NCBI GenBank assembly: GCA_001724265.1
Contig: MEDY01000004.1
Coordinates: forward strand, 62,001 to 126,000
Reading direction: 5' to 3'
Origin: Rhizaria sp. SCN 62-66
Lineage: Eukaryota
Length of the DNA stretch: 64,000 nucleotides
Shown: in pieces, positions 19,457 to 64,000 of the stretch
How positions within the stretch are numbered: the stretch's first letter is position 1
Layout: each line of letters starts with the position of its first letter
Program-made: the position numbers and the translations under genes
Notes under the pieces: generated by a model
The model's database searches: none
The model's input: the letters and a program-made list of their open reading frames with translations, nothing else
Told to the model about the DNA's origin: nothing

Positions 19457-22400
19457 TTACTGACGGTCAATACCCTTGTCCTTCTTCCACTGCTCAATTT
19501 CCTTCTTGAAAGCGAGTTGCGGCACGATCTTGTCAAGTGTGAGCGGCACGCGCGTGAAGGGATCCGTGGGGTTGGTCATCAGGTGGCGCTTGAGCAGCCA
19601 GAAGTCGAGCACAGTGCCCGAGGGCAGCTTCACAGGGTGCGTCATCACTTCGTAGAAGCAAATGTCGCGGAACTCGTCGGGCGCCTCATCCAGCACGCGC
19701 TCGCGCTCCGCCGCGCCCGCGCAGAAGCGCTCGATGTAGTCGACCGCGCGCGCCACTTCGCCCGCGCCGCCGCGCACGCCGAGCGTGAGCACGCGGCCGT
19801 CCGCCGAGGGCGCGGGCGCTGCCATGGGGCCCTGTGGGAGGCGGCCGCGCGAGACGAGGATCTGCGCCGCGCGCAGCATCACAGGTGCGGAGAACTTGGT
19901 CTCAGCCTGCAGGAACGACTCGAGGAACGCGGCGCCGCCACGCAGCGTCATGTCCTCGGCCTCCTCCTCCTCAACCAGCTCGCGCACCGCGGCCGACACG
20001 CCGGTCGCGGGCGGCGCGGCGGGCGCACGGGCCAGCGGGGCGACGGCGCCCAGCGTGAGGAAGATGGTGACCATCTGCGCCAGCAGCGTGCCGGGCTTGA
20101 AGTAGTACTTCTTGGGGTCCGCGACGTGCAGTTCGGAGACCTGCTTGCCGACGAGCTTGTCGACATACACGCCGACGACGATGCCGACGCGGCCCACGAA
20201 GTCGCGCCGCAGCAGCGCGCGCGGCGCGCTGGCAGCCACCATCGCAACAAGGCGCACGGCCGCGAGTCCGAAGACGTTGAGAGCGCCAGCGTGGCGCTCC
20301 AGGTCCGCGAGACTCGACTCTTCGGTGTCGCCGCTATCTTCGGGCGCGCCCTCCGCGGCGCCCCCGTCCTCAGGCTCATCGTTGCCGTCGTTGTTCGCAG
20401 CGTCGTCGTCCGCGCCACCCGCGGCGGCGTCAAGGCGCAGCAGGCGGCGGCGCGCACGCTGAGAGTCGCCGCGGCGGCGCACGGGCACTCCGCGGAGCTC
20501 GGCGTCCTGCAGCACCTTGATCTTGGCCAGCACTTGCAGCGCCTCGTCAAGCAGGTAGTGGATGTCGTTGAACAGAACGTGCACGAACTTGTCGAACAGC
20601 GGAAACTCGATCGGCACCTCAGGAGCGCGACCACCAGACTCAGCGACGCGCTCAGCAATGGCGGCAAGACGCGAGTAAGAGATTGCGCGCGAGGACGCGG
20701 CGGCGACGCGCTTGAAGGACCACACGAAGGGGTTCAGCGCCTGCGCAGCCGAGTCCTCCTTGTCGTCGTCAACAAACGCCGACAGGCCCAGGAAGCGGTC
20801 CGACTTGCTTGAGTCAGCCGCGTCAGCGCCAGCAATATTCGAAGCCGCAGCGCGCGTGGGGTCGACGGGCGTCATGCGGTGCGAGTAGGGAATGGCGCGG
20901 CCGCGGGGCACGGCTCCGGCGCGCGCGGCGATACCAACAAGCCCGCGGTCAAGAATCGCACTCAGCACACGCGTGGCGGTGAAACGGAACGTGTACTTGT
21001 CGTAGAAAGCCGTGCGCGAGCCCGTCTCCGCGCGGTCGCACAGGAAAAGCAGCAGCGGCACCAGGTACGACCGCGCCTCGGGCACGATGAAGAACGGGTG
21101 CCGGTCCGGGTCGATGTCGGCGCGAATCAGCTCCTGGTCCTCTTCGGCGCCGCGCTCGGCCGGCAGCTGCGGCACCAGTGCCTCGATAAGCGAGCCGATC
21201 TGCTGCTGCAGGTTCTTGCGCAGCTCAAAGTGGCGCTGCACCAGCGTCGCGCCGCCATCGCCAGCAATCGCTGCGCGCACCACAGCGCTAGGAATGCGCG
21301 CGGCAAGCGCGGCGTCCGCAGCAGAGGAAGTCGCCACCGTGGAGCCAGAAGCGCAAGTCGAGGCGCCAGATGCGGCGGCAGCGGCCTTGGCATATGCAGC
21401 AGCCGCAGCGCCCGCACCAATGGGCGCGAAGCCGACGTGGCCGACGAACGCGGCAAAAGAGGGCGAAGTGAGCAGGCCAGAGAAGCGGATGCAGAAGACG
21501 AGCACGTTGTCGAGCCCGCCATCGTTGATCACACCCGTCAGCGTGGAGTCCTGGTAGCGCTTCAGCAGCGTCACGAGCGCAAAGCAGTCGTCGACGACGT
21601 AGTCGGGCACAGCCGCGAGCGCCGCCAGCGGGGACACCTTGGCGCCGCCGGGCGCGGGCGCGCAAGGCACCTCGGAGTCGGCACATGCGAGCACCCATCC
21701 CAGTGCCCAGTTGTACAGCGCAAGCGCGCGGCGCACGAGCAGCGGATCGAAGAGCGCCATCTTGCGCACGCCGAACGCGCGCGTGAGCATGTCGACCTCG
21801 CGCTCCTGGCGCCGCAGCTCGCGCTCGAGCAGCTCGATGCGCTGCTGCACGGCGTGTGTGCGCGCCTCGGCGGGCGCGTACTCGTTCTGCAGCAGCGCGG
21901 CGCCGCGGGCGAGCACCTCGGCGGGGCCCAGCTCGCGCAGGTGCGCCATCTCCTGGCGGATCTGCGTGACAGTTCTCTCGGCGTTCTGCAGCTGGCGCAA
22001 ACTCATGTCGCCGCCGCGCAGCATCGGCACCAGCGACAGGTGCAGTGCCTCGAGCGACAGTGCCACCAGCTCCGTGCGCAGCGAAAACTCAGGGATGCCC
22101 GTCGGCGGCTCCGCCAGCGTCGGCATCGTGGGCGCGACGGGTGCCGCAGCACCGGCAGCCGCGCCCTCGGCCAGGAAAGCAGCGGCTTCGCGGGAGAAGC
22201 GCTCCTCAGCGGCGCGGGCCTCCGCAGCGGCGGCCATCGCGCTTGAAGCATAGGCCTCGGCCGCAAGGCGCGTCTGGTGGGCGAGCTGCTCCTGCATGGG
22301 GGCCAGATCGGCCTGCGTGCAGAAGAGCCGCTGCTGGCGCAGGTAGCACACGTGGCGCGAGCCCGTGAGCGCGTAGCGCGGCAGCGGGTACGCCAGCGCG

Positions 22401-25400: not shown

Positions 25401-28400
25401 GGGCGCACGGGCGCGGCCAGCAGCGCGGCCGGTGGCGGCATGTGCGTCGCCGAGGGGGTCGAGGCCGCGGGCGGCGCGGCCGGCGCGAAGGGATTCGCCA
25501 GCGAGGCCGAGGCCAGCTCGGAGTCCTCGAAGACCATCTGCGCCAGCGCGGGCGCCGTGTCGACGGCCGTGGCGAGCGCGGGCAACAGTGCGTCGCGCGC
25601 CTCGTCGGGCCCCACCACGGCGCCGACCGCGGACGCGTGCGCGGGGCCAATGTGCGCACCCGACGCGAACGGCGCGCCCACCGCGGTGACGCGCTCCCAG
25701 TCGCGCATGCGCCCCAGCAGCACCTCGGCGGCGCGCGCGGGCGTGGCCAGGTGGCCGGCATGCCGCAGCGCAAGCCGCGAGCCCGAGCAGGCGACCGTGG
25801 CGGGCCAAGGCGCGCCCGCGGGCGTCAGCGGCGCCGCGAGCGCGGCCAGAAAGGACGCAAAGCGCGGCGGCACGTGCTCCGCGGGCCGCTGCGCCGCGCC
25901 CGAAGAGTGCGCGTGCGCGGCGACGAGCGCCTGGTGCGAGTGCTCGAGCAGGCAGCGCGCGGCGAAGGCAGCCAGCGCGGCGCCGAGTGCGCCGAGCACG
26001 CGCCCGCACTCGCGGGCGGCCGTGGCGGCGTCAGGGTACGCCGCGCCGGCGCCGGTCTGCGCAGCTTGGCCCGGGTGTGCGCCACGCAGCACGAGGCGCA
26101 TGGCGTCGAAGGCCGGCAGCGCCGCGGGCGCGGGCACGCGCACGGACGGGAGGTCGGGCACGAGCGCGGGAGCGGGCCACACCGGCAGCTCGTCGACGGC
26201 CGCGCCGCCGACAGATCCCGCAGTGGCGGCGCCAGTCGCGGGTGCGATGTAGACGGCGGGCACGGCCACGGGCGCGTTGGCGGCGCTGCCGGTGGCCGAG
26301 AGCGCGGACGCCGCGGCGGAGGGCGCGCGCCGCTGCAGCCCGTCGGCGCCGTCGTCCGAGTCCGAGTCGTTGCCGGTCATGGAGCGCGCGAAGCGGCGCG
26401 CCGCGGCGCTCTTGCGCGCCTTGGCCGCCGCCGCACCGGCAGCGGTGGTCGTACCGGAGCCGGAACTAGCGCCCGAAGCCGCGGGCGACACAGGTGACGC
26501 ACTCAGCGTAGTCTCATTCACACTGGCGCTGGCACTGGCTCCAGCGCTGACGGCGGCCACAGCGCCACCGGGGGACTCGCCGGCGACGAGGGCGTAGAAA
26601 AGCGCGTCGCCGGTGATGGCCTCGAGCGGGAGTGGCTCGGGGCCCCACGCGGCGGCGGCGCCGGCCCACGCCGCGGCTGCGGGCGGCGCGGGCGCGTCCG
26701 CGGAGGCGGCGACGAGCGCAGCGAGCGCGAGCGTGCGGCGGTACGCGCCCGCGAGCAGGTCGATGATGGTGAGCTTCGACTGCGGGCCCAGCGCGGCGTT
26801 GGTGTAGAGCGCGTACGGCAGACGCGGGCGCGCGTGCCCCGCCGAGGGCAGCGGCACGGCCACGGGCGCGGGCGCGGGGCCCGTGGAAGGGGGCTGCATC
26901 ACGGTGACCCATGACGCCGTCGCGCCGACGACGAGCGGCGCCGCGGTGGGGTCCACGCTGCCCGCGCCGGAGGAGCGCGAGCGCAGCACGGGCGGCTGCA
27001 GCGCGGACGACGGGGACCCCGCCGGCTTCTGCTGCTGCTGCTGCTCTTTGTGCTGGCGGAGGCGCTCGAGCAGGTCGCTCTGCACGCGCGGCGCGACGCC
27101 GGTGAAGTTGAAGTAGGCGGTGTGCACGAGCGTGGCCTCGACCAGGCCCTGCGACTGCACGTGCCGCAGCCGCCGCAGCGCGCCCGCGCCCGCGGTCGAC
27201 TCGCTGCGCGCGCGCCCGCTCTCAGTCGCCGCGGCAGCACCCGGGAGCGCGGCAGCGGCGGCAGCGAGCTGCTTGTTGCGCTCGAGGTGCTCGTAATACA
27301 CCGCCAGTGCGGCCTCAGCAGGGTCCGTGGTCGCCAGCGACGCCACCTCGTGCAGCGCCGCCGTGACGTGCTCCAGTGATAACAGCGGGCGCCGCGACGC
27401 GCCGGGAGCGGCCGCGGCAGCGTCGGCGCCGGCGCCGGCGCGCTTCTGCTTCTGAAGCGCGCGCTGGAGGCGGAACTCTGCGACGAGGAACTTGGAGAGT
27501 ACCGGAAGGTACACGTAGCCCGTACGCTGCATCAGCTGGTTGAGGTCCATCGCCACCACGGGCGCAGGCCCGCTGCTGCCGCTGTTGCCGCCGCCGGCGG
27601 CTGCGGCGCCGGAGACCGCGGCGGCGACGGAGATGGGCGCTGCGAGCGGCAGCCCGCCCGGCACGACGGGCAGGGCGCCGTGCGCGGCCGCCAGCAGCGC
27701 AGTCTGCGCGGCGCCCGTGCCGGAGAGAAGCGCGGCGCGCGCGTTGCTGCGCGCGTCGGTGTCGGTGACGACCTGGAGCGCGTGCGCGATGACCTCGTGC
27801 GTCCACTCGGCCAGCAGCGCGGGCCACGCAACCGCCGTCAGCGCGCCCGGGGCGCTGGGCGCCGGCGCGGGGCCGGGTCCGGGTGACTGCGTCGGCGCGG
27901 GCGACGGCGACGGCGACGGGGACGGGCGCGCAGACACGGCGGCGGCGGCGGGCGCGGCAAGGCTGTTGGGGCTGCGCGCGGGCGTGCGGACCGGCGTGAC
28001 GGTCGCCGCAGGCGACGCAGCGGCGGGCGCGGACGCCGCCGTAGTCGCCGCCGCGGGCGTCAGGCGCAGCACGGCCGGGGACGCGGCGGCCGACGGCGCG
28101 GCGGACAGCGCGGCCGCGGGCGAGGGCGCGTTCGAGGTCGTTGGCACAGCGGGCTTGGCGGGCGTCGCAGGGCCCTCAGGGCTCGCAGCACTGGACGCAC
28201 CCGCGCTCGCACCTGCGCCAGCACTGGATGGGTTCGTGTTTTGTGAGGCGGCCATAGTGGCGCGCAGACGGGCAAGTGCTGAGAGCGCGCCGCCCGCGGG
28301 CGCAGCACCGGACTCGTCGCTGCCGAGACTCGCGCCACCGAGACTGGTGCCGGAGCTGAGCGCATTGGACTGCGAGGACTGCGCCGGGGACGGGGCCTGA

Positions 28401-29080
28401 GGCTGCAGGCCGGGGTTGAGCACGCGCCCCGCCGACGGCTGCGAAGGCTGCGAAGGCTCGGCGGCGGCGGGGGTGGTGGCGCTCACGAGGCGGAAGCGGC
28501 GCAGCGGGGCTGCGTCGCCGCTGCTGCCGGTCGCGGCGGGGGCGGCGGGGGCGGCGGGGGCGAGCGCGGGGGAGCCCTGCGCCGAGGGCGGGGCGGACGG
28601 GGCGGGGGTCGACGCGCTGCTGGCACCGGCACCGCTCACGGCAGTGGGGGCAGCAGAGGGGGCGGCTGCGGCGGCAGTAGAGGGGCGGGGCTCAGCAGGC
28701 GCAGAGGCAGGGGCCGAGGGCGCGGAAGGCGCAAGCGAGACAGGGCCCGTAACGCTGGACTGCGCAGACGCAGGCGCAGGCGCGGCAGTGGCGGTGGAGT
28801 CAGTTGTGGAGGCGGCGCCGGCCGAAGCGGCGGCGGAGGGCGCGAGGCGGGAGAGCGCGGCCAGACGGCGCTGGCGGAGCTCTTCTTGAGACAGCATGGT
28901 CGCGGGAGACCCGGTCGAGGCGGGCGCGGGCGCAGGCGCGGGTACGGCGGGCTCGGGCGAGGCGGGACGCAGGAAGCGAAGAACGCGCGAGCAGCAGTTG
29001 GGACGCAGTGGGGGCGTGCCAGGAGTCGGGTCAGCGGGATCGGTGTCGGGAATCGAACCTTTCTCGGGGTGATCACTCAT
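19457..29080 (-). CDS. UFD2: Ubiquitin conjugation factor E4 (Ufd2/UBE4, U-box), about 3200 aa
   Basis: N-terminal SQEELRQRRLAAL. Ufd2 core: FSLRTELVALSL, AAVPDYVVDD, FYDKYTFR, FVHVLFNDIHYLLDEAL, LHVADPKKYYFKPGTLL. C-terminal U-box: EAPDEFRDICFYEVMTHPVKLPSG...RHLMTNPTDPFTRVPLTLDKIVPQLAFKKEIEQW. Start is ATG 29080 or 28897; stop TAA. Confidence 0.92.
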   Translation of the reverse strand: MSDHPEKGSIPDTDPADPTPGTPPLRPNCCSRVLRFLRPASPEPAVPAPAPAPASTGSPATMLSQEELRQRRLAALSRLAPSAAASAGAASTTDSTATAAPAPASAQSSVTGPVSLAPSAPSAPASAPAEPRPSTAAAAAPSAAPTAVSGAGASSASTPAPSAPPSAQGSPALAPAAPAAPAATGSSGDAAPLRRFRLVSATTPAAAEPSQPSQPSAGRVLNPGLQPQAPSPAQSSQSNALSSGTSLGGASLGSDESGAAPAGGALSALARLRATMAASQNTNPSSAGAGASAGASSAASPEGPATPAKPAVPTTSNAPSPAAALSAAPSAAASPAVLRLTPAAATTAASAPAAASPAATVTPVRTPARSPNSLAAPAAAAVSARPSPSPSPSPAPTQSPGPGPAPAPSAPGALTAVAWPALLAEWTHEVIAHALQVVTDTDARSNARAALLSGTGAAQTALLAAAHGALPVVPGGLPLAAPISVAAAVSGAAAAGGGNSGSSGPAPVVAMDLNQLMQRTGYVYLPVLSKFLVAEFRLQRALQKQKRAGAGADAAAAAPGASRRPLLSLEHVTAALHEVASLATTDPAEAALAVYYEHLERNKQLAAAAAALPGAAAATESGRARSESTAGAGALRRLRHVQSQGLVEATLVHTAYFNFTGVAPRVQSDLLERLRQHKEQQQQQKPAGSPSSALQPPVLRSRSSGAGSVDPTAAPLVVGATASWVTVMQPPSTGPAPAPVAVPLPSAGHARPRLPYALYTNAALGPQSKLTIIDLLAGAYRRTLALAALVAASADAPAPPAAAAWAGAAAAWGPEPLPLEAITGDALFYALVAGESPGGAVAAVSAGASASASVNETTLSASPVSPAASGASSGSGTTTAAGAAAAKARKSAAARRFARSMTGNDSDSDDGADGLQRRAPSAAASALSATGSAANAPVAVPAVYIAPATGAATAGSVGGAAVDELPVWPAPALVPDLPSVRVPAPAALPAFDAMRLVLRGAHPGQAAQTGAGAAYPDAATAARECGRVLGALGAALAAFAARCLLEHSHQALVAAHAHSSGAAQRPAEHVPPRFASFLAALAAPLTPAGAPWPATVACSGSRLALRHAGHLATPARAAEVLLGRMRDWERVTAVGAPFASGAHIGPAHASAVGAVVGPDEARDALLPALATAVDTAPALAQMVFEDSELASASLANPFAPAAPPAASTPSATHMPPPAALLAAPVRPVPVEGSATIAVTVVPTATPLSPSWVLPTVRFLSHPRVEPLGAALGFVEAVLMALQRTAVPTAEQAAAEAEAAMEGTVVRHKSRSGKLVPAPAATAPVSAAVASAAEETSVALGCVVYPLVSCLGLTLAAQVSDAEVMRGLGAPVSPLTGLAGLAPSSRRPLSLPGTMPFVRVLTRLLSLPGVAPLVLAHPAFAPMAPALALPDAAAVGHTMQLEALRAHLATLYLSRAAAALPAPVSTETPALPAPATASEAKAGSSAGDSAAPGQQSQVARLVSALMPRALYSKLTLASLSLALPALNLHAPLVQPGGARQLSVPVSLAALDDAADAPPAPAAAGALVPAEPPVSSWSQLSKRVFARLGQSVSDLNFSLSSLSLPQLRLGAVALPTLPSLSLASLNFPKLALARTLAALQEEPAAVLPYPHRGSAAMGTGRAFALASLLSALLIVQPTPSDPAFANLRGRDMREVVTTFDRYRASFHAVHAAVAAMLKRAMQTQNRGARRRVLDWCAQFLFTAKPHAALQGDTSAAPSAHTVLNLASVLLAVTEPALGAPALPTRPGPDGSFAWPASVDPAYFLRADEVPAPGADPAVSAAVAAAHAQEIIDAAAWRVKARAEAVAAAVAARAPGPEEKAVCCEDGAAAAAAAASELGLGADRYSADEMAELESLASLDTDEGDALDRSTDLDSEIDGEDEEGEAEGEDDGYDVDGSYPLPPSLPLPSSEAVQRLLGSVTSALTVATAAISRSLASGDDDEPVAVAHSDYVRAGAAAGDAAALAAQGVFSRGSEGAPDGAAGAAGAGGLLGAALRNLPGVAAGPSVSYAVTAPSGRGVVSLPGGLPARSSMPTLPELLARPSRDLVTVPALPAPGAVVAAPAALAYTAMSAAEGPFAPPPCTLSAARASLEVSPWARPTERAVLSASRTRRARLALRTELKRAAGTGSASGSGSSAAAAAGVPGAPGSPVGGPASVPASATLTALRLGGPATAPEDEAADALPGSTTLGALAYPLPRYALTGSRHVCYLRQQRLFCTQADLAPMQEQLAHQTRLAAEAYASSAMAAAAEARAAEERFSREAAAFLAEGAAAGAAAPVAPTMPTLAEPPTGIPEFSLRTELVALSLEALHLSLVPMLRGGDMSLRQLQNAERTVTQIRQEMAHLRELGPAEVLARGAALLQNEYAPAEARTHAVQQRIELLERELRRQEREVDMLTRAFGVRKMALFDPLLVRRALALYNWALGWVLACADSEVPCAPAPGGAKVSPLAALAAVPDYVVDDCFALVTLLKRYQDSTLTGVINDGGLDNVLVFCIRFSGLLTSPSFAAFVGHVGFAPIGAGAAAAAYAKAAAAASGASTCASGSTVATSSAADAALAARIPSAVVRAAIAGDGGATLVQRHFELRKNLQQQIGSLIEALVPQLPAERGAEEDQELIRADIDPDRHPFFIVPEARSYLVPLLLFLCDRAETGSRTAFYDKYTFRFTATRVLSAILDRGLVGIAARAGAVPRGRAIPYSHRMTPVDPTRAAASNIAGADAADSSKSDRFLGLSAFVDDDKEDSAAQALNPFVWSFKRVAAASSRAISYSRLAAIAERVAESGGRAPEVPIEFPLFDKFVHVLFNDIHYLLDEALQVLAKIKVLQDAELRGVPVRRRGDSQRARRRLLRLDAAAGGADDDAANNDGNDEPEDGGAAEGAPEDSGDTEESSLADLERHAGALNVFGLAAVRLVAMVAASAPRALLRRDFVGRVGIVVGVYVDKLVGKQVSELHVADPKKYYFKPGTLLAQMVTIFLTLGAVAPLARAPAAPPATGVSAAVRELVEEEEAEDMTLRGGAAFLESFLQAETKFSAPVMLRAAQILVSRGRLPQGPMAAPAPSADGRVLTLGVRGGAGEVARAVDYIERFCAGAAERERVLDEAPDEFRDICFYEVMTHPVKLPSGTVLDFWLLKRHLMTNPTDPFTRVPLTLDKIVPQLAFKKEIEQWKKDKGIDRQ

Positions 29081-29803
29081 ACAAGAGTGAAGAAAGACAA
29101 GTTCTTGCAAACACCAACTGGCCAATCTTCTTAATGAAAACTGGTGTCAGTCAGAGACGCTTGCTGGAAAGCAGGAGGATAAGAGGCAAACGCAGAAAGC
29201 AAGATGAGTCACCATAACCAAAGCCGAGAGTCATTAGAGAAAATTCGCCTGTAGAGGTACAGAACGCAGGAAACCCAATTCATGAAGTTGAAACTGAATA
29301 CAAAACTACAAGTTTTGTTGGCATAGGAAGAAATAAAAGCAAAAACGAGCATCTCAGTACAGAACCTGCAGCCAAAGGAGCATGAGGGATCGAGAAGACA
29401 ACGAGGCTCGAGAGCCATGATTCGGACAAGATACCAGGGCCACAGGAGCTTGTGTTACAATATGCCAAAAACATGTTAGACACAATAAAACGTGAATGTC
29501 AACAAACATCTTGTATATCGTCATAACATCGTCCCAAACACGCATAACCATGACTTTCGGATCCGATGTCGCCCGTGCATCATCAGCATTGCTACAGCAA
29601 AACATTTTTCGACCCCGTCGGCAGTGTCACTTACGACAACTTTGAGAGCGCATATCAGTGCCGTGATGGTGGGAACATGTTAAAATCTTTGTATATGTTA
29701 CTATTCATACAGAAGAAAAACGTGTGGTGTGGTACTATTTAATCAGAAACTTAACTTTGTAGTCGTATCTGCGCCGCCCGAAGAGTCGTGTCACTGGGTG
29801 TAA

Positions 29804-44660: not shown

Positions 44661-46752
44661 TCACATACCAAGCGACGCGCGCATGTTTTGCAGCGCCTCC
44701 AGCGCCTCTGTGTCGCCCGCGGTGCGTTCCATCTCCTCCACTGCAGTCAGCCGCGCCAGGCCCAGCTCTGTATGTGGTGGTTAAAGCAGGAATACCAAAG
44801 TGTAAAATGCAGCCAAAAATGAGTGATGTGAGAAATATATCTATAGTGCGATTCGTTTCATAACTAAAAAAAATAGGCTTTCAAGATTGATTATTCTTTT
44901 ACGTACCGCGCCAGTCCTTATGCGAGTTGGCGACGCTGAAAGCCTTGACCCAGCCCGCGACGACTGCGCGCGAAGCGTCGTTCAGTGCAGCGCCAGCCGC
45001 ATTATCTGCCGCAGCAGCCTCAGAGGCGGCATCAGCCTCCGCAGCGTTGGCCTCGAAGACGCGCGCCAGCGAGAGCAGGTACGCCGACAGCGGGATCAGC
45101 TCACGGTCCTACGAACGTTAGTTGAAAAAAGTACATAAAAGCCGTATATGTTAGTGAAATCAGGATAAATTTGAAAAACCAAAATAAAACGTAATGAATC
45201 ATAATATATTGTAGATTCAAAACGCGACTCAATCATTTTAATGAATTTCTTGTCTTGTTGAGCATCCTATCGCACACATACACTCCTGCCGCGCGAAGAC
45301 AGCGCGCGCTTGAAGGGCTCAATCTGCAGCCCTGCGGCCGGGTTCATCGCGAAGTTGCGCGCCAGGTCATCGACGTGCACGGTGTTGTGCGGGCCCCAGC
45401 GCGCCTGCGGCAGCGCGCGCCACAGCAGCTCGAGCGCCTTGACCTGGTGCCGGCGGGTGCGGCCCGCGACGGAGCCCTGGACGGAGAACATCGTGGAGCG
45501 GTCCATAACAACCGTGAGCGCAAAGCGCGGGTGCGACAGCAGCCCCAGCGCGCCCAGCTTGAGCTCCAGAGAGCGCGCGGAGGACTGTGACCAGATGCAC
45601 AGGTCGTAGCGGCGGTACGCGAGCGCCAAGAACTCGAGAGTCAGCGGACGACGCAGAGACGGCATGTCGGCGCGCTCTGTGAGGCAAGCAAGAAAGCAAA
45701 TATGACAGCGAAGTGATGTGTGAGAAAACCAATGATGAATATATCCCTGCTCCCGGTAACTCAACTTCATAAACAACGCAGCTGTCTTCGAGCTGTCACG
45801 TACCGGTTTTCATGTCGAAGAGCGTGTAGTCGAGGTCGAGCACAAGCAGCGGGAACCCGCGGCGCGGCGCGCGCAGCAGCGTCACGCCGCTGTCCGCGTG
45901 CAACCCCTGCGCAAAGCGGTCCGCGTGCAGCGCGGGCGCCGCCTGCGTCGGCTCCTACAGCGCGGTGGCGTGCGGCGAGTCGAGCAGCCCGGTCTGCAGA
46001 CGGGTCAGAGTGGCCTCGAGCGCGGCGCGCGTGTGCAGGCACGTCTGGAGCCGCAGCAGATCCTCGTCGGCAAAGCTAGGGTAGACGTAGTCGGGCGCGT
46101 TCTCGTCCAGGTCGTTGACGACGCTGGCGCTAACCTCGCCGACCACGCGCTCCGCCGCGGGGGTCCCGATCAGCAGCGCGCGCACCGGTGCGGAAGACCG
46201 GGCCGCGTCCACCACCGGCGCCGCGGGCCGCGGGGCGGCGGGCGACGTGGGCGTCGCGCCCTCGGCCTCGTCCGCGTCGGTGGCTGCGACAGCGACTTTC
46301 GTCGCGGTCTCGAGCTCAGCCTCTGATGCAGCGGCCGTGGCGGCTGCGGCGGCCTCAGCGTCTGCGGCTGCAAGCGTCTCGGCGGAGCACTGCGCGGCTG
46401 CGGTGCCAACAACCTGGCCGACGAGTGTGGCGTCGGTGGCGGGCTTGCCGCCGATCTGCTTGATGTTGAGCAGCTTCTGCGCCGCGACGTCCACGCCCGT
46501 GCGATCCTCCAGACTGAGCTTGACGGACTCGAGCGTCGCCGAGGCAGGCACGTGCACCATAAACGTGTTCGAGCGCCACTTAACCGCAAACTGAAGTGAC
46601 ACATGGGCAAGAGGACGAAGGAAAGAGTGAGAATTGAACGAGCAGGAGAAACGGAGGACATGGAAGTTGGGAGCGGGAACAAGCGTACGTACCTCGATGA
46701 AGACCTCGGACGCGTTGGACGCGTTCGCGAGGGGAACAGACTCGGTAGACAT
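44661..46752 (-). CDS. UBLCP1: Ubiquitin-like domain-containing CTD phosphatase 1, 5 exons, with an in-frame TAG at 45955-45957
   Basis: Exons 46752-46693, 46590-45804, 45676-45282, 45108-44907, 44767-44661. UBL domain FAVKWRSNTF...TGVDVAAQKLLNIK; LLIGTP; VVNDLD; HAD motif LLVLDLDYTLFD; RPLTLEFLALAYRRYDLCIWS; VKALELLW; NTVHVDDLARNFAMNPAAGLQIEPFK; DRELIPLSAYL. Final stop TGA. Confidence 0.9.
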
Positions 46753-50632: not shown

Positions 50633-51914
50633 ATGGGTGTTAAGGGTACGTTTACATATACTGCTTGCGTTGCTCTGCCTCGTTTTTGTCGCTTCTGTAC
50701 CCCTTCGCTTTCACTCATTGAGACATCTTTGCCGAGCATCTTACTCACCCGCCACATGTATTTTTGCCACTTATGTACTCTCTGCAGGTCTTATGCGCTT
50801 CATCAGCGAGCGCGCGCCTGGCGCGGTGCGCGAGTACGACATCGCCAACTACTTCGGCCGCCGCATCGCGATCGACGCGAGTACGTGCCTGTACCAGTTC
50901 CTGGTCGCCATCCGCTCCGGCGCCGACGGCCAGAACATGGCGTCCGAGGACGGCGAGGCGACGTCGCACCTGATCGGCTTGTTTTACCGCACGCTGCGCA
51001 TGCTGGACCACGGCATCAAGCCCGTGTACGTGTTCGACGGCAAGCCGCCGGAGCTCAAGGGCGGCGAGCTGGCCAAGCGCCGCGAGCGCCGCCAGGCCGC
51101 CGAGGAGTCGCTCAAGGAAGCCAAGGACTCGGGCGACGCGGACGACGTGCAGAAGTTTGAGCGCCGCCTGGTGCGCGTGAGTCCCGAGCAGAACGCCGAG
51201 GCGAAGCGTCTGCTCAAGCTCATGGGCGTGCCGTACGTCGAGGCGCCCGGAGAGGCCGAGGCGACCTGCGCGGCCCTCGCGCGCGCGGGCGCGGTGTACG
51301 GCGCCGGCACGGAGGACATGGACGCGCTGCCGTTCGGCGCGACGAAGCTCATCCGCAACCTCACGGTGTCTGCGAACAAGGAGGCCGCGATCGTCGAGGT
51401 GGACCTGGACAAGGTGCTCGAGGGGCTGGAGCTCACCATGGAGCAGTTCATCGACATGTGCGTGCTCTTCGGCTGCGACTACACGTCGACGATCCGCGGC
51501 ATCGGCCCGCAGAAGGCGTACGAGATGATCAAGCAGCATGGCTCCACGGCGGCGGGCCTCAAGGAGCTCAATCGCGAGAAGTACCCCGTCCCCGAGGACT
51601 TCATGCCGGAAGCCGCGGCGGAGCTGTTCCGCAACGCTGAGGTCGCCGACGCCGCCGAGCTCGACCTTAAGGCGCGCGAGCCCGACGAGGAGGGACTCAT
51701 TGCGTTCCTGTGCGGCGAGAAGGGCTTCCAGGAGCCTCGCGTGCGCGCCGGACTGGCGCGGCTGACCAAGGCCAAGTCCAAGGGCACGCAGCAGCGGCTG
51801 GAGAACTTCTTCTCCATCATCCCCAAGTCCCCCACCGCCAACGCCAACGCCAAGACCGGGCAGACCAAGCGTCCTGCCGACAAGAAGGGCGCTGCCGCCA
51901 CCAAGAAGAAGTAA
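50633..51914 (+). CDS. FEN1: Flap endonuclease 1, 2 exons
   Basis: Exon 50633-50645 (MGVKG), GTACGT...CAG intron, exon 50788-51914. YFGRRIAIDAS, TSHLIGLFYRT, PVYVFDGKPP, EAPGEAEATCA, TEDMDALPFG, GCDY, PIP box QQRLENFF, basic tail. Stop TAA. Confidence 0.97.
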
Positions 51915-53006: not shown

Positions 53007-56000
53007 TTACGCGTTGGCGTTGGCGTTCGCTGCGGCTGCGGCCTCAGCGTCACGGCGCTGCTGCTTGGCCTTAATGAGTGCGCGCTTGGCGTCGTAGTTG
53101 TTGAGGACCTGCTCGGTCTGCATGAAGTGCAGGATCTGCGTCTGCAGCACCTCGTTCCACGTCGTGTCCTCGGCCAGCGCGTTGTCCGTCTCGGCCGACG
53201 CGATCACGTAGGGCGCCGCCAGTGCCGCCACGGCCGCGTTGGCTGACACACGCGGCACCTCGAGCTGCCCCTCGGCCTCCTCATCCGCCGCGCTGGCCAA
53301 CGCGCCGCCCGCTCGGCAGTCCGAGTCGTCCGAGTCGTCGCCCTCGCCGGGACCCATGCGGCCCGCGCGGCCCTTGCCCGGCGCGGCCGCGGGCGCCGCG
53401 GGGGAAGCGCACATCGGCACGCCGCCGCCGCTGCCGTTGCCGCTCTCGCCGCAGTCGTAGTCGCCGGTGTTGCTGCTGCTGAGCGCGATCTGCGCGCTGG
53501 ACAGCGCGGCGGCGGCCGAGGGCGCGCGCTTGAGCGCGGTGAGGCGGCGGAACACGCCCTCGGGATCCTTGTACCGCGCCAGCGGCTCCGCGGCGTCGAG
53601 CGCAAAGCGGTGCACGTTGGCGGCCATGATGTGCGCCATCGCGGCGTGAGTGCCCGACAGCGGCGGCTGCATCGTATCGCAGTGCTGCAGGTGCGCTGTG
53701 TACGTGTAGTGGTAGCTCACCACGGGCACGTTCAGCGCCGTCGCGCAGTGCAGCGAGTACACGATGCACGCCGTGTTGAGCTCGCGGTCGTCCACGAACA
53801 CCAGCTCAGGCGGCAGCGACGGGAAGCGCGGCAGGTCCTCGGGGTACAGCCGCGCCGCGGGCGGGCACCACGGCGCCAAGGGCGTCGCACCGCTGCCGCC
53901 GCCGCCGCCGGTGCTGTTGGCCACGGCGTTGCTGACGTCAGCGTCGGGACGACCCTGGGCAGCGGCCTCGGCCGCGGCCTGCTCGGCGGCGGCGGCGCGC
54001 ACGGCGGCCAGGTGCTGCTGCAGCCGCGCCAGCGTGCAGCCCTCGTGGCCGACGCGCGGGTCCAGCCCGGCCCGCGCGGCACACGCCGCAGCAGCAGCGG
54101 CCGCGGCGCTCCCGCTCGTGCCGCTGCTGCTGTGCGCGCGGACGTGGCTGTTGCGCGCGGCGATGGCGTCGAGCTTGTGGCGCCATTCGTGCGCGTTCAG
54201 CCTGCCGCCGGCCAGCACCACGTTCTCGAGGAAGCGGTTCAGCACCATGCCCTTGTCCATGGCGTTGGTGAAGATGACGCCGCGGTCGTACACGGCGCCC
54301 AGTTCCGTGTCGGTGATCGGACCCGCGGCCTCGTCAAACGGTGCCATCAGTGTGAGGTCGATGCCGAGGTCGTTGAGCGACTTAACCGTCACGTGCGACA
54401 TGTCCGCGTAGCGCGAAGTGAGCCCGAACACGAGGCATCCGCGCGCCTGGAGCTCGTCGATGACGTCCTTGGTGCAACGCTCGACGAGGCGCTTGCGGTG
54501 CAGCGCCTCCTGGAGCCGGCGGATGTAGCCGTTCTTGACGTCCATGGGCACAGCGGCGTAGGCCGGGTGCGAGCCCAGCAGGCCGCGGAAGGCCTGCACG
54601 CCCTGCTGCGTCATGAGCGTGCACGGGTGGTGCACGTTGCAGTGCACAGTGTCGTCGATGTCCAGCGCAACGAGCGTGCCGGGCGCCGAGTGCCGCAGCA
54701 GGTGCGCAAAACGGTGCAGCACCCAGACCGAGCCCGTGGTGCCAGCGCACACGAACTGCGGCTGCGACGTGCACGGCGTCGGCAACGCGAACAGCGCCGA
54801 TCGCAGCGCCTTGCGCCGCAGCGCCTCCAATGCGGCCGCCTGCTCCGCAGTGAGACAGACGGCGGGCACGGGCACCAGCGGTGCAGCGGCCAGCAGCGCA
54901 GGCGACGCCGCCGCGGACTGGTACGCGTGGCACTGTGCGGGCACCGGCGGCAGCACGGGGCTCACGGCGTTGACCGACGCGGCGGCAGCGGCAAGGTCCG
55001 CGGCGGCCGCGGCGGCGGGGTCGGGCGCGAAGAGCGACGCCGAGGCCGAGCCCGCAGCGTTGGCCGCGTTGGCGGCACTAGTGCTGAGCGTGGGCGTGTC
55101 CATCGACGGCGTGTCGAGCGCGCTGGAGAAAGCGCGCGCGTGCAGCGGCGGCGGCTGCGCGGGCGAGCTCACCATCGGCAGCCCGCTGCTGTTGCCGCTG
55201 TCCGTCGCCAGCGTCAGCGCAGACGCGCGCAGAGCGAAGCCAGAGGTGGAGCCCGTGCTGGAGCCCGAGCCGGGCGCAGCGGCGGGCACTCGCGCGGGGC
55301 GGCCGGGCGTGCTGACGCCGTTGTAGCCGTGCGTGGCCGAGGACGACGTGGACGCGGTCGACAGCTTGCTGTGGCTGCGCGCGCGCGCCGTGCGCTGCAG
55401 CGGCAGCTCGTCGTCGTCCAGCATGCCCTCGCCGCCGCCCGTCGCGCTGTCGGCGCCGCCGGGCGTGTTGCTGTTGCCGTTGGCGCCATCGTCGCCCTCG
55501 CCCAGCGCGGGCGTCACAGGCGTCGCCGGCGACAGCGCCAGCTTGCGCTTCAGCGCGCGCGCAACCACAGTCGTGTCGGGGCCGACCATGAGGCCGCCGG
55601 CGCCGCTGTTGGCGCTGTTGAGGCTGGCGTTGCCGCTGACGGGCGCGGAGCCGGGCAGCGAGCTCGACGCCGAGGCCGAGCGCCACAGCGAGCCCAGCGC
55701 GGGGGCCGCGCCAAACCGCGCGCCGCCACCCAGCCCCGGCGCCGTGCCGAGCTGCGGCGGCGGCGGAAGCCCGTCTCTGGCCGCGGCGGCCATGGCGGCC
55801 TCGCGCTGGCGGAAGAAGCGCAGCAGATCTCTGCGGCAGCGGCGGTGCTGCTCGGCGAGCGCGGCGTCGGCGTGCGCGCGCACAGCGTCGATGGCGCGCT
55901 GGCGCACCTCGGCGTTGTGCGAGCGGACGACGTTGTGCTGGTGGCAGTAGCAGGTGGAGCCGCCGCGCGCGACGCCGGCGACGTTTGCGGCCACCACGGC

Positions 56001-59000
56001 GGGCTCCTGCTGCAGCACAGTGGCTAGGTCGTACGACGGCGGCGCCGCGGGCAGCGCCGCGCGCGCGTCGTAGTGGCCCGGGTGCAGGTGAAACTCCTCT
56101 TCGTTGACGTAGGCCTCGAAGCGCTCGGCCTCCAGGTTCGTGTCTGTCGCCACAGTCGCCGCGCCCGCCGCGCTGGCGAGCGCGCCGCCGACGCCGAAGC
56201 TGAAGACGCCGCCGGAGCTGGCGGCCGAGGACACGGATCCGCGCCACGACGCGGGGCCCGGGCTCGCGGGCGCGGTCACGCTGCCGCCAGCAGTCCCGCC
56301 GTTGGTCGCGGCGGCGGCGGCGGCGAGCACGGCACGGTGCGCGTCGGCGGTCAGCGGACCGATGCCCGCGTAGTCGACCGAGGGGCACTGCAGCTGCGCG
56401 AGCGCAATCACGCGCGCGCACGCCGCGATGGACGCGGCGACGCCGGCCGTGCACGCCTGCTGGTGGATCGCGTCGGCGTTGGCAATGCGCCACGCGTGCG
56501 CGCGTGCCTCGCGGACGAAGTCCACGGGGAACTGACTCGGCAGCGGCGCGGGCCGCAGCCGCAGCCGCGCGGGCGTGTCCGAGAGCGCGGCCGCGACCGA
56601 CGCGGCGGCAGTGGACGCGAACGCGGAGGCCGCGGTGACGGACTGGCCGTTGCGGTCCTCGGCCTCCTCGACCGGCGCCAGCAGCGTGCGGTTGCTCGAG
56701 CTGGAGCTGGCCGTGGCCGCCGTCAGCGGCGTGGGCGCGCGCGCCGACGGGGCGGCGGCGTCGTCGGCGCCGCTGAGGGAAAGCGAGTCGGGCGCGGAGA
56801 CGGGCGCTGAGGCCGAGGCGGGCGTGGGCGTCGCAGTCGCGGGCTCTGTGCCGGCCGCCGAAGGCGTCAGCGACAGCACGGCGGGGCGGCACACGCCGGC
56901 CGCGGACACGACCGAGGGCGTGGGCGCGGGCGCCGTGGAGAGCGTGGCCGAGGACACGGTCGCATTGCCCGACACGGGCGTGGCCATCATCGCCGCGCCG
57001 GGGCCCGCGGCCGTGGCAGCGGCTACGGCGGCGCGCGCGCGCGCGGGGGGCGCGGCGTGGCGCAGCCCTGGGTCCGTGGGCAGGCGCCCGTCGCACAGCA
57101 GGTCGATCAGGCCCTCCTCTTCCTGCTGATGCGGCGGCTGCTGTTGTTGAGGCAGCGTCTCAGCGTCCTCCTCGTTAGTCGCAACGTGGCGGCCGTCCTC
57201 GTCGTCCTCGTCGGAGGCGCCGGCGAAGATGTCTCCCTGCCGCGCCCAGAGCGCCTCTTCATCCTCCTCGTCCGCCTCCGCCTCCGCCTCGGCGTCGGCG
57301 TCGGCCTCAGCGCTGGCCTCGGCGCTGGCCTCGGCGTCGGCGTCGGTGCCGGTCTTGCGCGCGCGGCGGCGCAGCGCGGAGCCCAAGCCGGGCGCCGACC
57401 GCCGACCCGCACCGCTGGCGCTGACGGCGTTGCTGTCCGCGTCGCCCATCTGGCTCTGCTGCGAGGGCGGCTGGGCCTGCGTGTGGCCGCGGGGCGTCCA
57501 CCGCGGCGGCGCGGCGGCGGCCACGGCGGCCTCAGCGTCGGCCTCGACCTGCGCGCGCAGCCGGCTCAGCTCGCCCTGGCCGTGACCGTGGGCGTGCGAG
57601 TGACCGTGAGCAAGCGAATGACCGTGGGTCGGGACGGGCGAGACAGAGTTCGAAGAGCGCCCGCCCGCGCCGGGCGATGCCGCGCCCCCCGCGGTCGTGG
57701 CCGCAACCGCGCCGGCCTGGGCTGCGCCACTGGCCTGAGCTGCGGCGCCAGCCTGGGCTGCGGCGCCGGTCTGGCTGACGGGGCCGGTTTGGCTGACGGG
57801 GCGGAACGCGGTACGCAGGATCGTCACCGGGGACGCCGTCGTGCCACGCACATTGTTCCCGTTCGCGATCGCGGCGCTGCTGCCGTTGTTGGCCGCGAGC
57901 GCGGGCTGTGGCGTGACGCGCAGCAGGTGCGTGGCGGGCCCGGAGCCGGCCGCGCGGCGCCCGCCCGAAAGCCCCGACAGCCCGGAGAGGCCGGAGAGCC
58001 CGGACAGGGCCTCGACGGCCGAGAGCGGGGACGCGCGGCCTGAGCCGGTGCGCGAGGGCGGCGGCATCAGCGATCGCGCCTGCTGCGCCTGCGGAGACCC
58101 GCCTGGCGCCTCGGCAGCCAGTGCGGGCCCGCCGGCCCCGACCCCAGCGCCGACGCGGTCGCCGAGTGAGGACGAGAGGGACATGGGCGAGGCGCGGCCG
58201 CCCACGCCCGCGGCCCCGGCGGCGGCGGGCGCGGCGGCGGCCAGAGGCGAGGGCCGCGCGTTGGCCGCGGGACTGCCGCCCGCGCTGGCGCCCGCGCCGG
58301 GCGCGGGCAGCGAGCGGATCACCGGCGTCGACTCGGGCGTGAACTGCCGCCGGGGCCCGCCGCGGGGGCCGCGCACCCCCGTACCCAGCGTCTGGCTGCC
58401 CGAGAACGGGCTCCCGCCGCCCGTCCCGGTTCCGCCGCCGCTGACGCTGGCCGCGCCGGAGAGGCTGTGGCGCAGCTCGGCGCGCCCGCGGCCGCCGGCG
58501 CCGCCGTGGGCCGAGCCCGTGCCGGCGCTGTTGCCGCCCGCGGCCAGGTCCATCGGCAGCGGCACCACCACGGTCGAGCCCGCGCCCGCGCCCGCACCCG
58601 CGCCCGAGCCGGAGCCGGAGCCGGAGAGCGGGTGTGGGCGGCGCTCGCTGCCGCTGCGGCCGGTGGGCCCGAAGTGCCCGTCCCCGCCGTGGCTGTGGCT
58701 ATGACTGTGGCCCGGGTGACCGTGGGCGGGACCGTGGGCCGGACTCGACCAGCCCAGCACGGGCGTCGCGGCCGGGGTCACGCCGGCACCGCCCGCCGCG
58801 CCGCCGCGCCAGCCGCCGTGGCCCTGGCCGTGGGCGCCGTGTCCGTGCCCGTGGGCGCCGTGGGCGCTGTGGCTGTAGTGGCTGTGGTGAGCGGGCGTGA
58901 AGGGCTGTGCCGAGGCCGCCGAGGCCGCCGAGAAGGCCGGCGAGCCCCGCACGCCGCCCGCGCCGGCGCCGGCGCCAGTGACGACGACGCCACCCGTGGT

Positions 59001-59405
59001 GCTGTCGAGCGCGCTCACGGCGGGCGTGCCGGGGGTCGACACCGCGCCCGCCCAGCCCTGATGATGCTGCTGCTGCTGCTGCTGCGGCCCGTGGCCGTGG
59101 CCGTGGCCGTGCGCCTGACCGTGGTTGTGGTGCATGGGGCCCGAGACGTGGACCAGTCCGGACCCGCGCTTGCTGGCGCTACCGTGCCCGTGGCCGCCGT
59201 GCGGCTGCTGCGGCTGCGGCTGCGGCTGCGGCGGGGGCGGCATCAGCGGCACCACCATAGTCGTGGCGCGGCTGGCCGACGACAGCACGGACTCGGTGTC
59301 CTCGGTGTCGTGGTCCGCGCCCGCGCCTCCGGAAGGGCCATGCGTCACCAGTACCGAGCTCAGACCGAGCCGCTTGCTGTTGCCGCTGATGCGCTTCTTA
59401 TTGTG

Positions 59406-59456
<51 letters not shown>

Positions 59457-60605
59457 GGCGTTGTTGACGCTGGTGTTGGCGCTATTGTTCGTGGTCGCCG
59501 TGCTGCGCGCGTCGCTGGCGTCGTCACCGTCGCCTGCGAGCTTTCTCTCGGCGCCACCGGCACCGTGCCGTTGCTGCGGCTGTCTGTTGCCCTTGCCACG
59601 GCCCTGAGCCAGACCCTGCGCCTGCTGAGACTGAGACTGAGACTGCGAGCTTCTGCCGTCGTCGTCGTTCCTGTCGTCGTTGTCGTCATCGCTCATGCGC
59701 ACCGGCGTGCCCGCCGCGCCCTGCCGCTGCGCCGCGCGCCGCGCGCAGGCCTCTGCGTCGGCGCCCGCGTCGGCCTCGGCGTCGTCCGACATGCTCACGG
59801 TCGTCGTCGGCGACCGCCCGCCCGCTGCGCGCGTGCCCGCCGCGACCGCAGCGCTGCCGGGGCCCGCGCCGAGGGCGGAGGCCGAGACGGGCAGCGGCAG
59901 CGTGCTGAAGCGGCGCTGGCGGGCGCGTACGGCATCGAGCGCGGCTGAGCCCCAGCCTGCGGCGCCCCCGCCCCCGCCAGCGTCAGCGCGACCGGCGCCG
60001 GGGTGGGCTGCGCTAGCGTTGGCGTGCGCGGCGACAGCGGAGGAAGACGCGGAGAGCGCGCAGACGGCGTCGCCACCGTCGTCTGCGTCGTACGCGCAGT
60101 TGTTGTTGTCGTCGTCGTTGCCGTCACCGGTGACGCCGTCGACGCCGTCGTCGTTGTCGCTGCCGTCGTCGACGTCGCTGTCGCCGGCGGCCGCGTCGCC
60201 CATCGAGCACATCGCGTCGCCGTTGGCCGCGTTGGCACCGCCGTTGGCGGCCGCATTGCCGCCGCCCAGGTTGTTGCCGACGTTGACTGGCGAGGCCGAG
60301 GCCGAGTCACCGCCCCCCGCGGCCGCGGCGAGCGCGCGCAGGTCGTTAGCCGAGGAGCTGCGGCGCGCGCCCAGCCCCGGGGAGCCGCCGGCCGAGGCGG
60401 CGGACCCGCGGCCGAGCGCGTGCGCGTGCGCGTGGGTCGGGCTGACGCCGTCGAGGTGCGCGGGGCCGGCGCTGGCAGTGGACTGGGGCAGGCGGAGCTT
60501 GCGCGGGTGCGCGCCCTGGAAGAGCGGCGGGGACTTGGGCGCGAGCGAAGGCGATGTGTTAGGCACAAACGAGTGGGCGTTAAGCCCGTGCTTGCGGTAG
60601 TTCAT
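53007..60605 (-). CDS. 2532-aa low-complexity protein with a C-terminal HAD-superfamily (DUF2608-like) domain
   Basis: Single uninterrupted ORF. HAD motifs near the C-terminus: LVALDIDDTV (I), VFGLTSR (II), GVIFTNAMDKG (III), LVFVDDRELN (IV). The remainder is Gly/Ala/Ser/His/Asn/Gln-rich. Stop TAA. Confidence 0.8.
59407..59457 (-). repeat. (AAC)17 coding microsatellite encoding poly-Asn
   Basis: Perfect TTG x17 on the + strand, in frame in the 53007-60605 ORF. Confidence 0.95.
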
Positions 60606-61630
60606 GAGAACGAGAGGTGCGTGCGGGCGAGTGGGCCGTTAAGGCACAACTACTGCTCCTGAGCGCGTGGCTCTGACGCGAGAAGTGGCGGGCGAGACTG
60701 TGCGCGCGGAAACAAAGTCATGAGAGCGTAGACAAATAATATGTTAAGGTTGAGTGCGGTGTTGAGATGAAGAATGGTTATCAGAGGACGGTGACGATCG
60801 CATCGGCTCGAATTCATTGATGATATTTGCCAGGCCACAAGTGATGACGTGCTCGCGTGCTTATAAGCGGAAGCGTTTCGAGGGGCTTAGCAAACGTGTT
60901 CAGAAAGTACGCGATGCAGTTTAGCAATAAACAAGTTTACCGCAGACGTACACGAAGAGTTCTTGCCGAGTTGCCTTAGCGTGTGACGCTAGCGGCTGGG
61001 AAGGTTCCGACCCGAGGAGGGTAAGGACGTGAAGGGCTGTTAAGGAAACGCCTCAAACGTGCCTATAGAGACATAATACCAGCGCACAAGTGGTTAAATA
61101 CAGTAAAAGATAAGTTTTAATGGCCCATTAATGGTAAACCCAGCACGTGGCCAGAGTTATGAGGATTACAGCAGCGGGAATCCGTGCAGAGAAGAAAAGA
61201 GATGAGAGGCAGTCGACGCCTAACAAAGTCGCCTTTTCCCTATGAGGATTACAACACTGTAATGACCACTGTTTGCAGTGAGAATTAAATATGGTTTCAA
61301 ACACCCACGTGGCTAACCCAGGAACACAAAATGTGGACTATACCTTGTTCCTCTTGGTCATGACACGCGTAGATTGGGAGCAGACGATGCTCCCCATTTT
61401 ATCACAAATGGGAGCCTTCGACGATCGTTTTTCGCGGGCAACCTTGAACTCAACATCATGCGCTGTATTGTCCAAGATATGATTATACTATATGTTCATA
61501 AGATTTTTAGTTTACATTTTAACATTATATTTCAATTTAAGATCATTCAGATTGTATTTTTGTTCACAATAGCTCACTTCAAACCCTCTCCTGTCATATT
61601 GTTTCGCTCAGACCCGCTGAAGCCGGGAAC

Positions 61631-62745: not shown

Positions 62746-64000
62746 ATGTCCAAGAACAAGACCCGCGTCGCGATTAACGCTGTCGCCGGTAAGGCGAACA
62801 CCAAGGAGAAGGTTTCCAGTGGCCAGGCCTCCGTCGGTATCGACTTCGGCACCACCAAGATCTCCATCGCGGCCTACAAGCCCGACATTGGCGTCTTCGA
62901 CATTATCGTCAACGAGGATGGTGAGCGCGCCACTCCTTGCTACGTTGGTTTCACCAACACCGAGCGTGTCATTGGTACCCCTGCCAAGACTGCCGTCTCC
63001 CGTAACGTCGAGAACACTATCCACTCGTTCCGTGATGCCCTCAACTCCTCCTTCGGCGCCCTCCCCGCCGCGCAGAAGTCCTACGGTGTGTCCGTGCGCC
63101 CCGACGAGAATGACCGCACCGTCTACGAGGTCAAGTTTAAGGCCGAGGCCACGATGGTGACCCCCGACGAGCTCATCCAGGCCCTCTTTGAGCGCGTCAA
63201 GGCGCACGCCGACGGCTACTGGGATGAGGACGTCAAGAACCTCGTCCTCTCCGTGCCCTCCACCTTCTCCGCCGAGGCCCGCGAGGCCATGACCGCGTGC
63301 GCCAACAAGGCCGGCTTCGCCGTCACCGCCGTGCTCGCCGAGCCCCTCGCCGCCGCCATTTCCTTCGGCCTCGATGACGAGACCGCGGCTGATGCTGCCA
63401 TGAAGAAGAACATCCTCGTCGTCGACGTCGGTTCCTACTCGACCACCTTCTCCGTGCTCTCATCCCAGCACGGCCTGCTGTCACTCATCGACACCGACTG
63501 CACCCAGGAGATCGGCGCTACCCACGTCGACGCCCAGCTCTTCACGCACTTCTCCAAGGTCTTCACCACAAAGTTCCAGCTCGACCTCTCCGAGTCCAAG
63601 CGCGCCACCACGCGTCTGCTGCAGGCCTGCGAGGGCGTCAAGAAGTCCCTGTCGTCCATGCCCGCCGCGTCGGTCAAGCTCGACTCGCTGTTCGAGGGCC
63701 AGGACCTCTTCGCTGACGTCACCCGCGCGCGCATGGAGATGATGTGCGACTCGCTCTTCCGTTCCCTCCACAACGCGCTCGTCGCCTTCTTCAAGCGCCC
63801 CCACAACGTCCGCGCCTCGGCCATCACCCACATCGTGCTCGCCGGTGGCGGCGCCGCGCTGCCCCGCACCCAGGCCGTCATCGAGAACTTTTTCGCCGAG
63901 CAGACCGGCGCCTTCACGGCCACCGTGCTCAAGCAGACGCACCCCTCCGAGGCCGCCGTGTTCGGCTGCGCCAAGCAGGCCTCGCTGCTCGCCGGTGTCC
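62746..64000 (+). CDS. HSPA14: Atypical Hsp70 of the Ssz1/HSPA14 (ribosome-associated complex) type, partial
   Basis: My own translation from ATG 62746 stays open to the window end: VGIDFGTTKI, IVNEDGERATPCYVGF, VLSVPSTF, LAEPLAAAISFGL, ILVVDVGSYST, LDSLFEGQD, VTRARMEMMC, IVLAGG, PSEAAVFGCAKQASL. The divergent ATP-site motifs fit the Ssz1/HSPA14 subfamily rather than canonical Hsp70. Confidence 0.8.
   Translation, partial: MSKNKTRVAINAVAGKANTKEKVSSGQASVGIDFGTTKISIAAYKPDIGVFDIIVNEDGERATPCYVGFTNTERVIGTPAKTAVSRNVENTIHSFRDALNSSFGALPAAQKSYGVSVRPDENDRTVYEVKFKAEATMVTPDELIQALFERVKAHADGYWDEDVKNLVLSVPSTFSAEAREAMTACANKAGFAVTAVLAEPLAAAISFGLDDETAADAAMKKNILVVDVGSYSTTFSVLSSQHGLLSLIDTDCTQEIGATHVDAQLFTHFSKVFTTKFQLDLSESKRATTRLLQACEGVKKSLSSMPAASVKLDSLFEGQDLFADVTRARMEMMCDSLFRSLHNALVAFFKRPHNVRASAITHIVLAGGGAALPRTQAVIENFFAEQTGAFTATVLKQTHPSEAAVFGCAKQASLLAGV

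Follow-up and report, generated by a model that had tools for sequence, protein, structure and literature searches.

The ubiquitin-like domain-containing CTD phosphatase 1 (UBLCP1) is a proteasome phosphatase found in animals, fungi, and many protists. Exitrons are intronised coding sequences, that is, GT..AG pieces lying within a coding exon. Changes of the nuclear genetic code that affect UAG only have been described in Iotanema spirale, in which UAG encodes Gln, and a reading of UAG as Leu has been described in the rhizarian exLh (Panek et al. 2017, PMC5304391). Among 71 genes of exLh, 384 in-frame UAGs are reported, many of them at conserved Leu positions, and 0 of the 71 genes end in UAG (PMC5304391). 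The preliminary description of the locus presented here referred to the same work for UAG-only reassignment, and that citation is correct (PMC5304391).

The locus is a UBLCP1 homologue on the minus strand of a 64-kb window (the whole stretch of DNA analysed), and was modelled by sequence reading as five exons with 516 codons (Table 1). It is like UBLCP1 in its order of domains, with a putative UBL domain at the N-terminus followed by a linker and, at the C-terminus, an FCP1/NIF-type HAD phosphatase domain with the DLDYT motif, and unlike UBLCP1 in having an in-frame TAG ahead of the catalytic domain and large Ala-rich insertions, one of about 80 residues in the linker and one of 32 around the TAG. 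The frame of the UBL and phosphatase parts is not continuous, as the TAG separates them. Around this codon exon 2 reads ...GCC ACC GCG CTG TAG GAG CCG ACG CAG... and goes on in the same frame to ...LLVLDLDYTLFDMKT, with a distance of 38 codons from the TAG to DLDYT and no ATG between the two.

Table 1. Features of the UBLCP1 homologue and positions of the terminators read in the window.
Feature	Position	Strand	Description
Exon 1	46693..46752	-	ATG at 46752, 20 codons, stop-free
Intron 1	46591..46692	-	102 nt, GTACGT..CAG, GC 0.52
Exon 2	45804..46590	-	Putative UBL domain, Ala-rich linker, NDLDE..DYVY block, TAG-bearing insertion, start of phosphatase domain
In-frame TAG	45955..45957	-	Codon 213 of exon 2, about codon 233 of the 516-codon gene
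Lineage-specific insertion	45892..45987	-	32 codons, LLDSPHATAL-TAG-EPTQ...GLHAD; absent from P0166 and other aligned homologues
Candidate intron	45890..45958	-	69 nt, GTAGGAGC...GCGGACAG; GT..AG, frame-keeping; donor GT overlaps TAG; judged unlikely
HAD motif I, catalytic DLDYT	45823..45837	-	Intact, downstream of TAG; invariant D252, D254, and T256 in alignment A1
Intron 2	45677..45803	-	127 nt, GTACGT..CAG, GC 0.45
Exon 3	45282..45676	-	FCP1/NIF-type phosphatase core, no lesion; PF03031
Intron 3	45109..45281	-	173 nt, GTATGT..TAG, CTAAC branch motif, GC 0.30
Exon 4	44907..45108	-	DRELIPLSAYL...HKDWR; homologue match by eye, BLASTP not significant
Intron 4	44768..44906	-	GTACGT..CAG
Exon 5	44661..44767	-	Own terminator TGA at 44663..44661
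17 terminators read, part 1	6268, 8809, 9612, 16557, 19195, 19459, 29806, 31706, 37778, 38208		Window positions
17 terminators read, part 2	40196, 42861, 44663, 47242, 51912, 53009, 61925		Window positions

The exons of the window are very GC-rich, with GC3 about 0.9, and its introns are short and AT-richer. Introns are concentrated at the 5' ends of the genes. Intron 1 of the UBLCP1 homologue has a length that is a multiple of 3 and contains no in-frame stop, so prokaryote-style ORF callers read across it, and its translation is included in the database ORF P0001. In the FEN1 gene (50633-50800, plus strand) a GTACGT intron directly follows the first five codons (MGVKG), and an internal Met is therefore the start of the database ORF P0044 (373 aa). 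The best named FEN1 matches come from animals, chytrids/blastoclads, and chlorarachniophytes (52-58%), with one further relative at 75%; a FEN1 scan of genome contigs for further DNA of the organism found no relative. Three genes on the minus strand are single-exon frames with long Ala-rich low-complexity stretches, encoding a UFD2/U-box protein (19460-29146, 3,229 codons), a DUF2608 protein (53010-60638, 2,543 codons), and a MIF4G protein (9613-15240, 1,876 codons). An Hsp70-like gene (62746-64000, plus strand) runs off the window and was missed by the codon-bias scan; it differs from the remaining genes in its C-ending codon style with a lower GC3 and may be highly expressed.

Exon 3 of the UBLCP1 homologue matches the FCP1/NIF-type HAD phosphatase domain PF03031 with 41.6 bits (cut-off 21.8), and the N-terminal part of exon 2 matches the ubiquitin family PF00240 with E = 0.0011 and 19.1 bits, which is under the cut-off of 25.4. 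The UBL region also aligns with the UBL of homologues carrying PF00240, and homologues named UBLCP1 by their sources align across both the UBL and the phosphatase parts. The nearest full-length homologue (P0166), likewise named UBLCP1 by its source, is 51% identical to exon 3. Of the alignment columns derived from 19 sequences, all 23 that are invariant and 6 of the 7 that are nearly so are retained in exon 3, the sole miss being T to S in WSQT, and DLDYT (the DxDxT motif) is invariant in alignment A1. A protein-database search with exon 3 gave 41 matches with a maximum of 53% identity, among which the best named UBLCP1 matches are from chytrids and Mortierellomycota at about 50%. A search with exon 2 gave two matches, the window's own ORF and P0002. 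A metagenome scan with exon 3 identified 20 loci, one from the same organism and the other 19 at most 56% identical. A full HMMER scan with 126 residues surrounding the TAG gave six matches, and none of them covers this codon except the window's own ORF, which ends there.

The preliminary description placed the TAG in a non-conserved linker between the UBL and phosphatase domains of a gene that is otherwise intact downstream, and both statements hold. The codon lies within a 32-residue insertion, the conserved exon 3 follows it without a second stop, and no second lesion was found in any exon of the gene. BLASTP against P0166 leaves a clean 32-residue gap between ...LEATLTRLQT and GVTLLRAPRRGFPLLVLDLDYT, and the insertion is missing from the 10 homologues of alignment A1 and also from the metagenome loci with readable upstream sequence (13 loci). 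About a third of the UBLCP1 gene consists of such non-conserved insertion, and the chance placement of a TAG there is therefore not rare. Neither TRF nor the repeat finder reported a tandem repeat at the TAG site. An exact 11-nt in-frame repeat (45919-45929 and 45892-45902, minus strand, 27 nt apart), seen by eye, encodes LHAD twice and hints that the insertion grew through small duplications. The closest relative is a fragment, P0164, which derives from a JGI contig of 1,653 nt (protein only), shares 74% identity over 43 residues, and ends before the TAG site. Its similarity is lost directly after ...DYVYPTFPDRDLE, and 12 codons further on its frame is closed. The interruption of the P0164 ORF past ...PDYVYPTFPDRDLE falls in the part that separates the NDxDE block from the phosphatase domain.

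The coding signal continues beyond the TAG. The 22 codons that follow it have GC contents of 0.82/0.55/0.95 at codon positions 1/2/3 and an in-frame codon log-likelihood of 5.94, compared to -24.6 and -9.1 in the other frames; the in-frame value corresponds to the 25th percentile of 445 true coding windows and is attained by 2.3% of 2,225 off-frame windows. Among 439 candidate stops, defined as stop codons of the window with 30 stop-free codons on each side, this TAG ranks first by coding signal on both flanks. No other in-frame stop occurs in the 16,393 codons that make up 30 coding segments from 19 genes of the window.

Comparison with independent contigs confirmed that the in-frame TAG is present in the DNA and is not an artefact of one assembly. 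A 158-nt contig from another study (record 18 of run X4, 2025) covers 45903..46060 with 0 differences and flanks the TAG by 52 and 103 letters; X4 behaves as DNA because a sister contig is unspliced through introns 3 and 4. With this agreement, the in-frame TAG in exon 2 and the continuation of the frame to the HAD motif, as first described, are confirmed. A contig from X2 and X3, which look like one data set, also covers the TAG with 0 differences, although it ends 8 letters beyond (45965) and was therefore not counted as bridging. Moreover, an ORF that ends in ...ATAL at the TAG is recorded from four contigs, and no alternative letter at the TAG is listed in four runs, in which contigs drop minor variants. 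JGI contig L001, which belongs to this organism, begins 4 nt below the TAG (45951) and so just misses it. Both foreign contigs, L001 and that of X2/X3, thus break within 10 nt of the TAG, and these breaks may stem either from an allelic bubble or from a coverage drop over exon 2, which is GC-rich.

A sequencing or assembly error, or a rare variant chosen by the assembler, would be in keeping with the low depth at the site (2.6 in X4), with the poor coverage of exon 2 across all runs, and with the breaks in two other assemblies, but is highly improbable given the identical letters in the window, X4, and X2/X3, the ORF recorded as closing at the TAG from four contigs, and the four runs without an alternative letter. 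Base-call error had been among the options of the preliminary description and now appears unlikely because an independent contig agrees. The source eukaryote recurs in bioreactor, wastewater, and activated-sludge metagenomes. The carrier samples show 0 differences over 1.5 kb and are one near-clonal strain, and recurrence across years is therefore no argument for selection on the TAG.

A stop-bearing insertion has the usual look of a missed intron, and for this reason all frame-keeping GT..AG pairs that remove the TAG were listed. There are 48 such combinations, only one of which spares the conserved blocks, namely the 69-nt candidate of Table 1 (GTAGGA...GACAG). This segment could be a GC-rich intron or exitron, or the nonsense codon could be tolerated via partial splicing. 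The nearest homologue lacks the stretch in which the TAG lies, homology begins again exactly where the candidate has its 3' end, and excision of the candidate would leave ...HATAL fused in frame with GVTLLRAP..., the length being a multiple of 3. Short introns are known in the window (54 nt in the AOX gene), and the candidate donor agrees with the local consensus at +1, +2, +3, and +5. However, the ten introns read in the window use GTACGT (8), GTATGT (1), and GTACGA (1), so that GTAGGA is off the consensus GTA[CT]G[TA], and G at +4 occurs in 0 of the 10. A CT[ACG]AC branch motif is found by eye near the 3' end in at least 8 of the 10 introns, and the candidate has no usable one. Its GC content is 0.75, compared to 0.30-0.52 in the four introns of the gene, it shows an in-frame coding periodicity of a strength rarely equalled off frame, and its removal would account for just 23 of the 32 inserted residues. 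Like exitrons, the candidate is a GC-rich, coding-like GT..AG piece in a coding exon with a length that is a multiple of 3; unlike exitrons, it has a donor that is off-consensus for the organism and has no branch motif. Removal of the TAG by splicing is therefore judged decidedly unlikely.

Two other forms of intron were rejected. An intron ending at CTGTAG had been regarded in the preliminary description as less likely for lack of a GTACG donor upstream and because of the GC-rich sequence, and it is rejected here, as each of the 11 frame-keeping GT donors that pair with this acceptor would remove conserved residues of the NDLDE..DYVY block, the H.R..LE.TL..LQT block, or both, and bears no resemblance to the GTACGT consensus. 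The opposite arrangement, with the GT of CTG|TAG serving as the donor, was missed there and is the 69-nt candidate considered above. A 153-nt candidate (46042..45890) would delete sequence conserved in P0166 and P0002. In the polyA metatranscriptome X6, contigs are present only at 45450..45742 and 45985..46194, leaving 45743..45984 without a contig. The X6 contig at 45450-45742 runs 66 nt into intron 2, unspliced, and therefore represents unspliced RNA or DNA carry-over and is no proof of expression. None of the runs showed a splice joint, a result that carries no weight for or against splicing because the X6 contigs leave out the TAG.

The terminators of the 17 readable genes in the window are TAA in nine, TGA in eight, and TAG in none. 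TAA is thus the commonest terminator despite a GC3 of about 0.9. TAG typically accounts for 15-20% of terminators, and with a share in this range 0 of 17 has a probability of about 0.02-0.06. One explanation is that UAG is an inefficient terminator in this organism, being leaky, unassigned, or a very rare sense codon, in which case the TAG of the UBLCP1 homologue would be translated and a full-length enzyme would be produced. The lack of TAG terminators where G-ending codons dominate would fit such a code, as would the fully conserved phosphatase domain behind the TAG and the codon bias that continues in frame. True sense codons can be equally rare, as ATA occurs 0 times, TTA 2, AGG 5, and CTA 5 times among 10,472 training codons, and one TAG in 16,393 codons is therefore possible for a sense codon. 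UAG-only reassignments do exist (PMC5304391).

As in exLh, the in-frame stop is UAG and, in the small sample of this window, the terminators seen are UAA and UGA (0 of 17 TAG here and 0 of 71 in exLh). Unlike exLh, with its 384 in-frame UAGs in 71 genes, the window contains one in-frame UAG in 19 genes and 16,393 codons, and this one is at a non-conserved, inserted position (PMC5304391). On these sequences, a genome-wide UAG reassignment of the exLh kind appears excluded. Against the translation of UAG at a lower frequency stand the counts of the rarest G-ending sense codons besides AGG, which are at least 23 per 10,472 (TTG 23), and the expectation, by analogy with the TTG:CTG ratio, that a Gln or Leu TAG at equilibrium would occur some tens of times. 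Furthermore, the TAG, being part of an insertion, has no conserved residue opposite it in the alignment, 17 genes are too few to demonstrate TAG avoidance, and no tRNA gene, including tRNA-CUA, was found in the 64-kb window. The eRF1 gene is not within the 64-kb window either, and a full-text literature search for UAG sense codons in activated-sludge eukaryotes gave unrelated reviews only. Translation of the UBLCP1 TAG under such a code is considered unlikely. A related proposal is that UAG no longer serves as a terminator and is either rarely read as an amino acid or generally leaky, so that a UAG-only code change would be seen near its beginning, when hardly any sense UAGs have accumulated; this is similarly doubtful. 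The option of UAG as a rare sense codon, raised in the preliminary description, stands with a reduced weight; known UAG-only codes look very different, with many in-frame UAGs per gene. The initial list of options was sound, although recoding was given too much emphasis in it. That the stop happens to be TAG says little in this respect, since about 75% of one-step nonsense mutations would give TAG (74-77% under six mutation models with the usage of the 10,472 training codons).

Under an otherwise standard code, readthrough of UAG specific to this gene could yield a UBL-only product and, at a lower level, the full-length phosphatase. The gene is intact on either side of the stop, and since the stop falls where one domain gives way to the next, each product would be a folded unit. 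Known readthrough contexts include CARYYA and a C at +4. The stop context here is UAG-GAG-CCG, which matches neither of these contexts, and the 121 nt downstream fold no better than shuffled sequence (z of 0.17), 112 of 200 shuffles being equally stable. A full-text literature search for UBLCP1 readthrough gave unrelated papers only. Programmed readthrough, also listed among the initial options, shows no signal in the stop context or in the downstream 121-nt fold and seems quite improbable.

On balance, the probable explanation is a genuine nonsense mutation of recent evolutionary origin in the UBLCP1 homologue, with UAG having its standard meaning. This was one of five options in the preliminary description (e.g., CAG>TAG), and is the best supported of them. 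The TAG is isolated, being one in-frame stop in 16,393 codons and not a codon in regular use, and TAG as the stop is what ordinary mutation would be expected to produce, given its share of 74-77% among one-step nonsense mutations. The downstream sequence is undecayed, as expected of a recent lesion, and there is no readthrough signal and no tRNA gene in the window. Several observations speak against a nonsense allele, including the 0 of 17 terminators that are TAG, the retention of all downstream invariant catalytic residues, which fits a still-translated gene equally well, and the position of the TAG precisely within sequence that homologues lack, a pattern classic for introns left unspliced. 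We infer that the TAG ends translation of the UBLCP1 homologue and that the lesion is recent.

Such an allele may have arisen by a change of CAG, GAG, AAG, or TCG to TAG inside the lineage-specific, non-conserved 32-residue insertion. Translation would then stop after about 232 residues, leaving a UBL-plus-linker fragment that lacks the catalytic DLDYT. As there is no ATG between the TAG and DLDYT, the phosphatase could not be made on its own, and as three introns lie downstream of the TAG, the mRNA would probably be a target of NMD as well. The allele may be fixed in the near-clonal, widely spread strain, in which case the locus would be a fresh pseudogene of a dispensable gene, or the strain may be heterozygous for it.

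In a genome dominated by G- and C-ending codons, TAG is the outcome of about three quarters of random nonsense mutations, and a lone in-frame TAG is therefore weak evidence of recoding. If the TAG of the UBLCP1 homologue is an ordinary nonsense allele, it matters little, and a free-living protist would be losing, or carrying a null of, a proteasome phosphatase. This phosphatase is missing from several lineages. If it were true that UAG never terminates here, the window would capture a nuclear stop-codon reassignment at its intermediate stage, with the codon unassigned. Such an intermediate is predicted by codon-capture theory and, to our knowledge, has rarely been observed. The organism recurs in bioreactor samples and could therefore be studied again.
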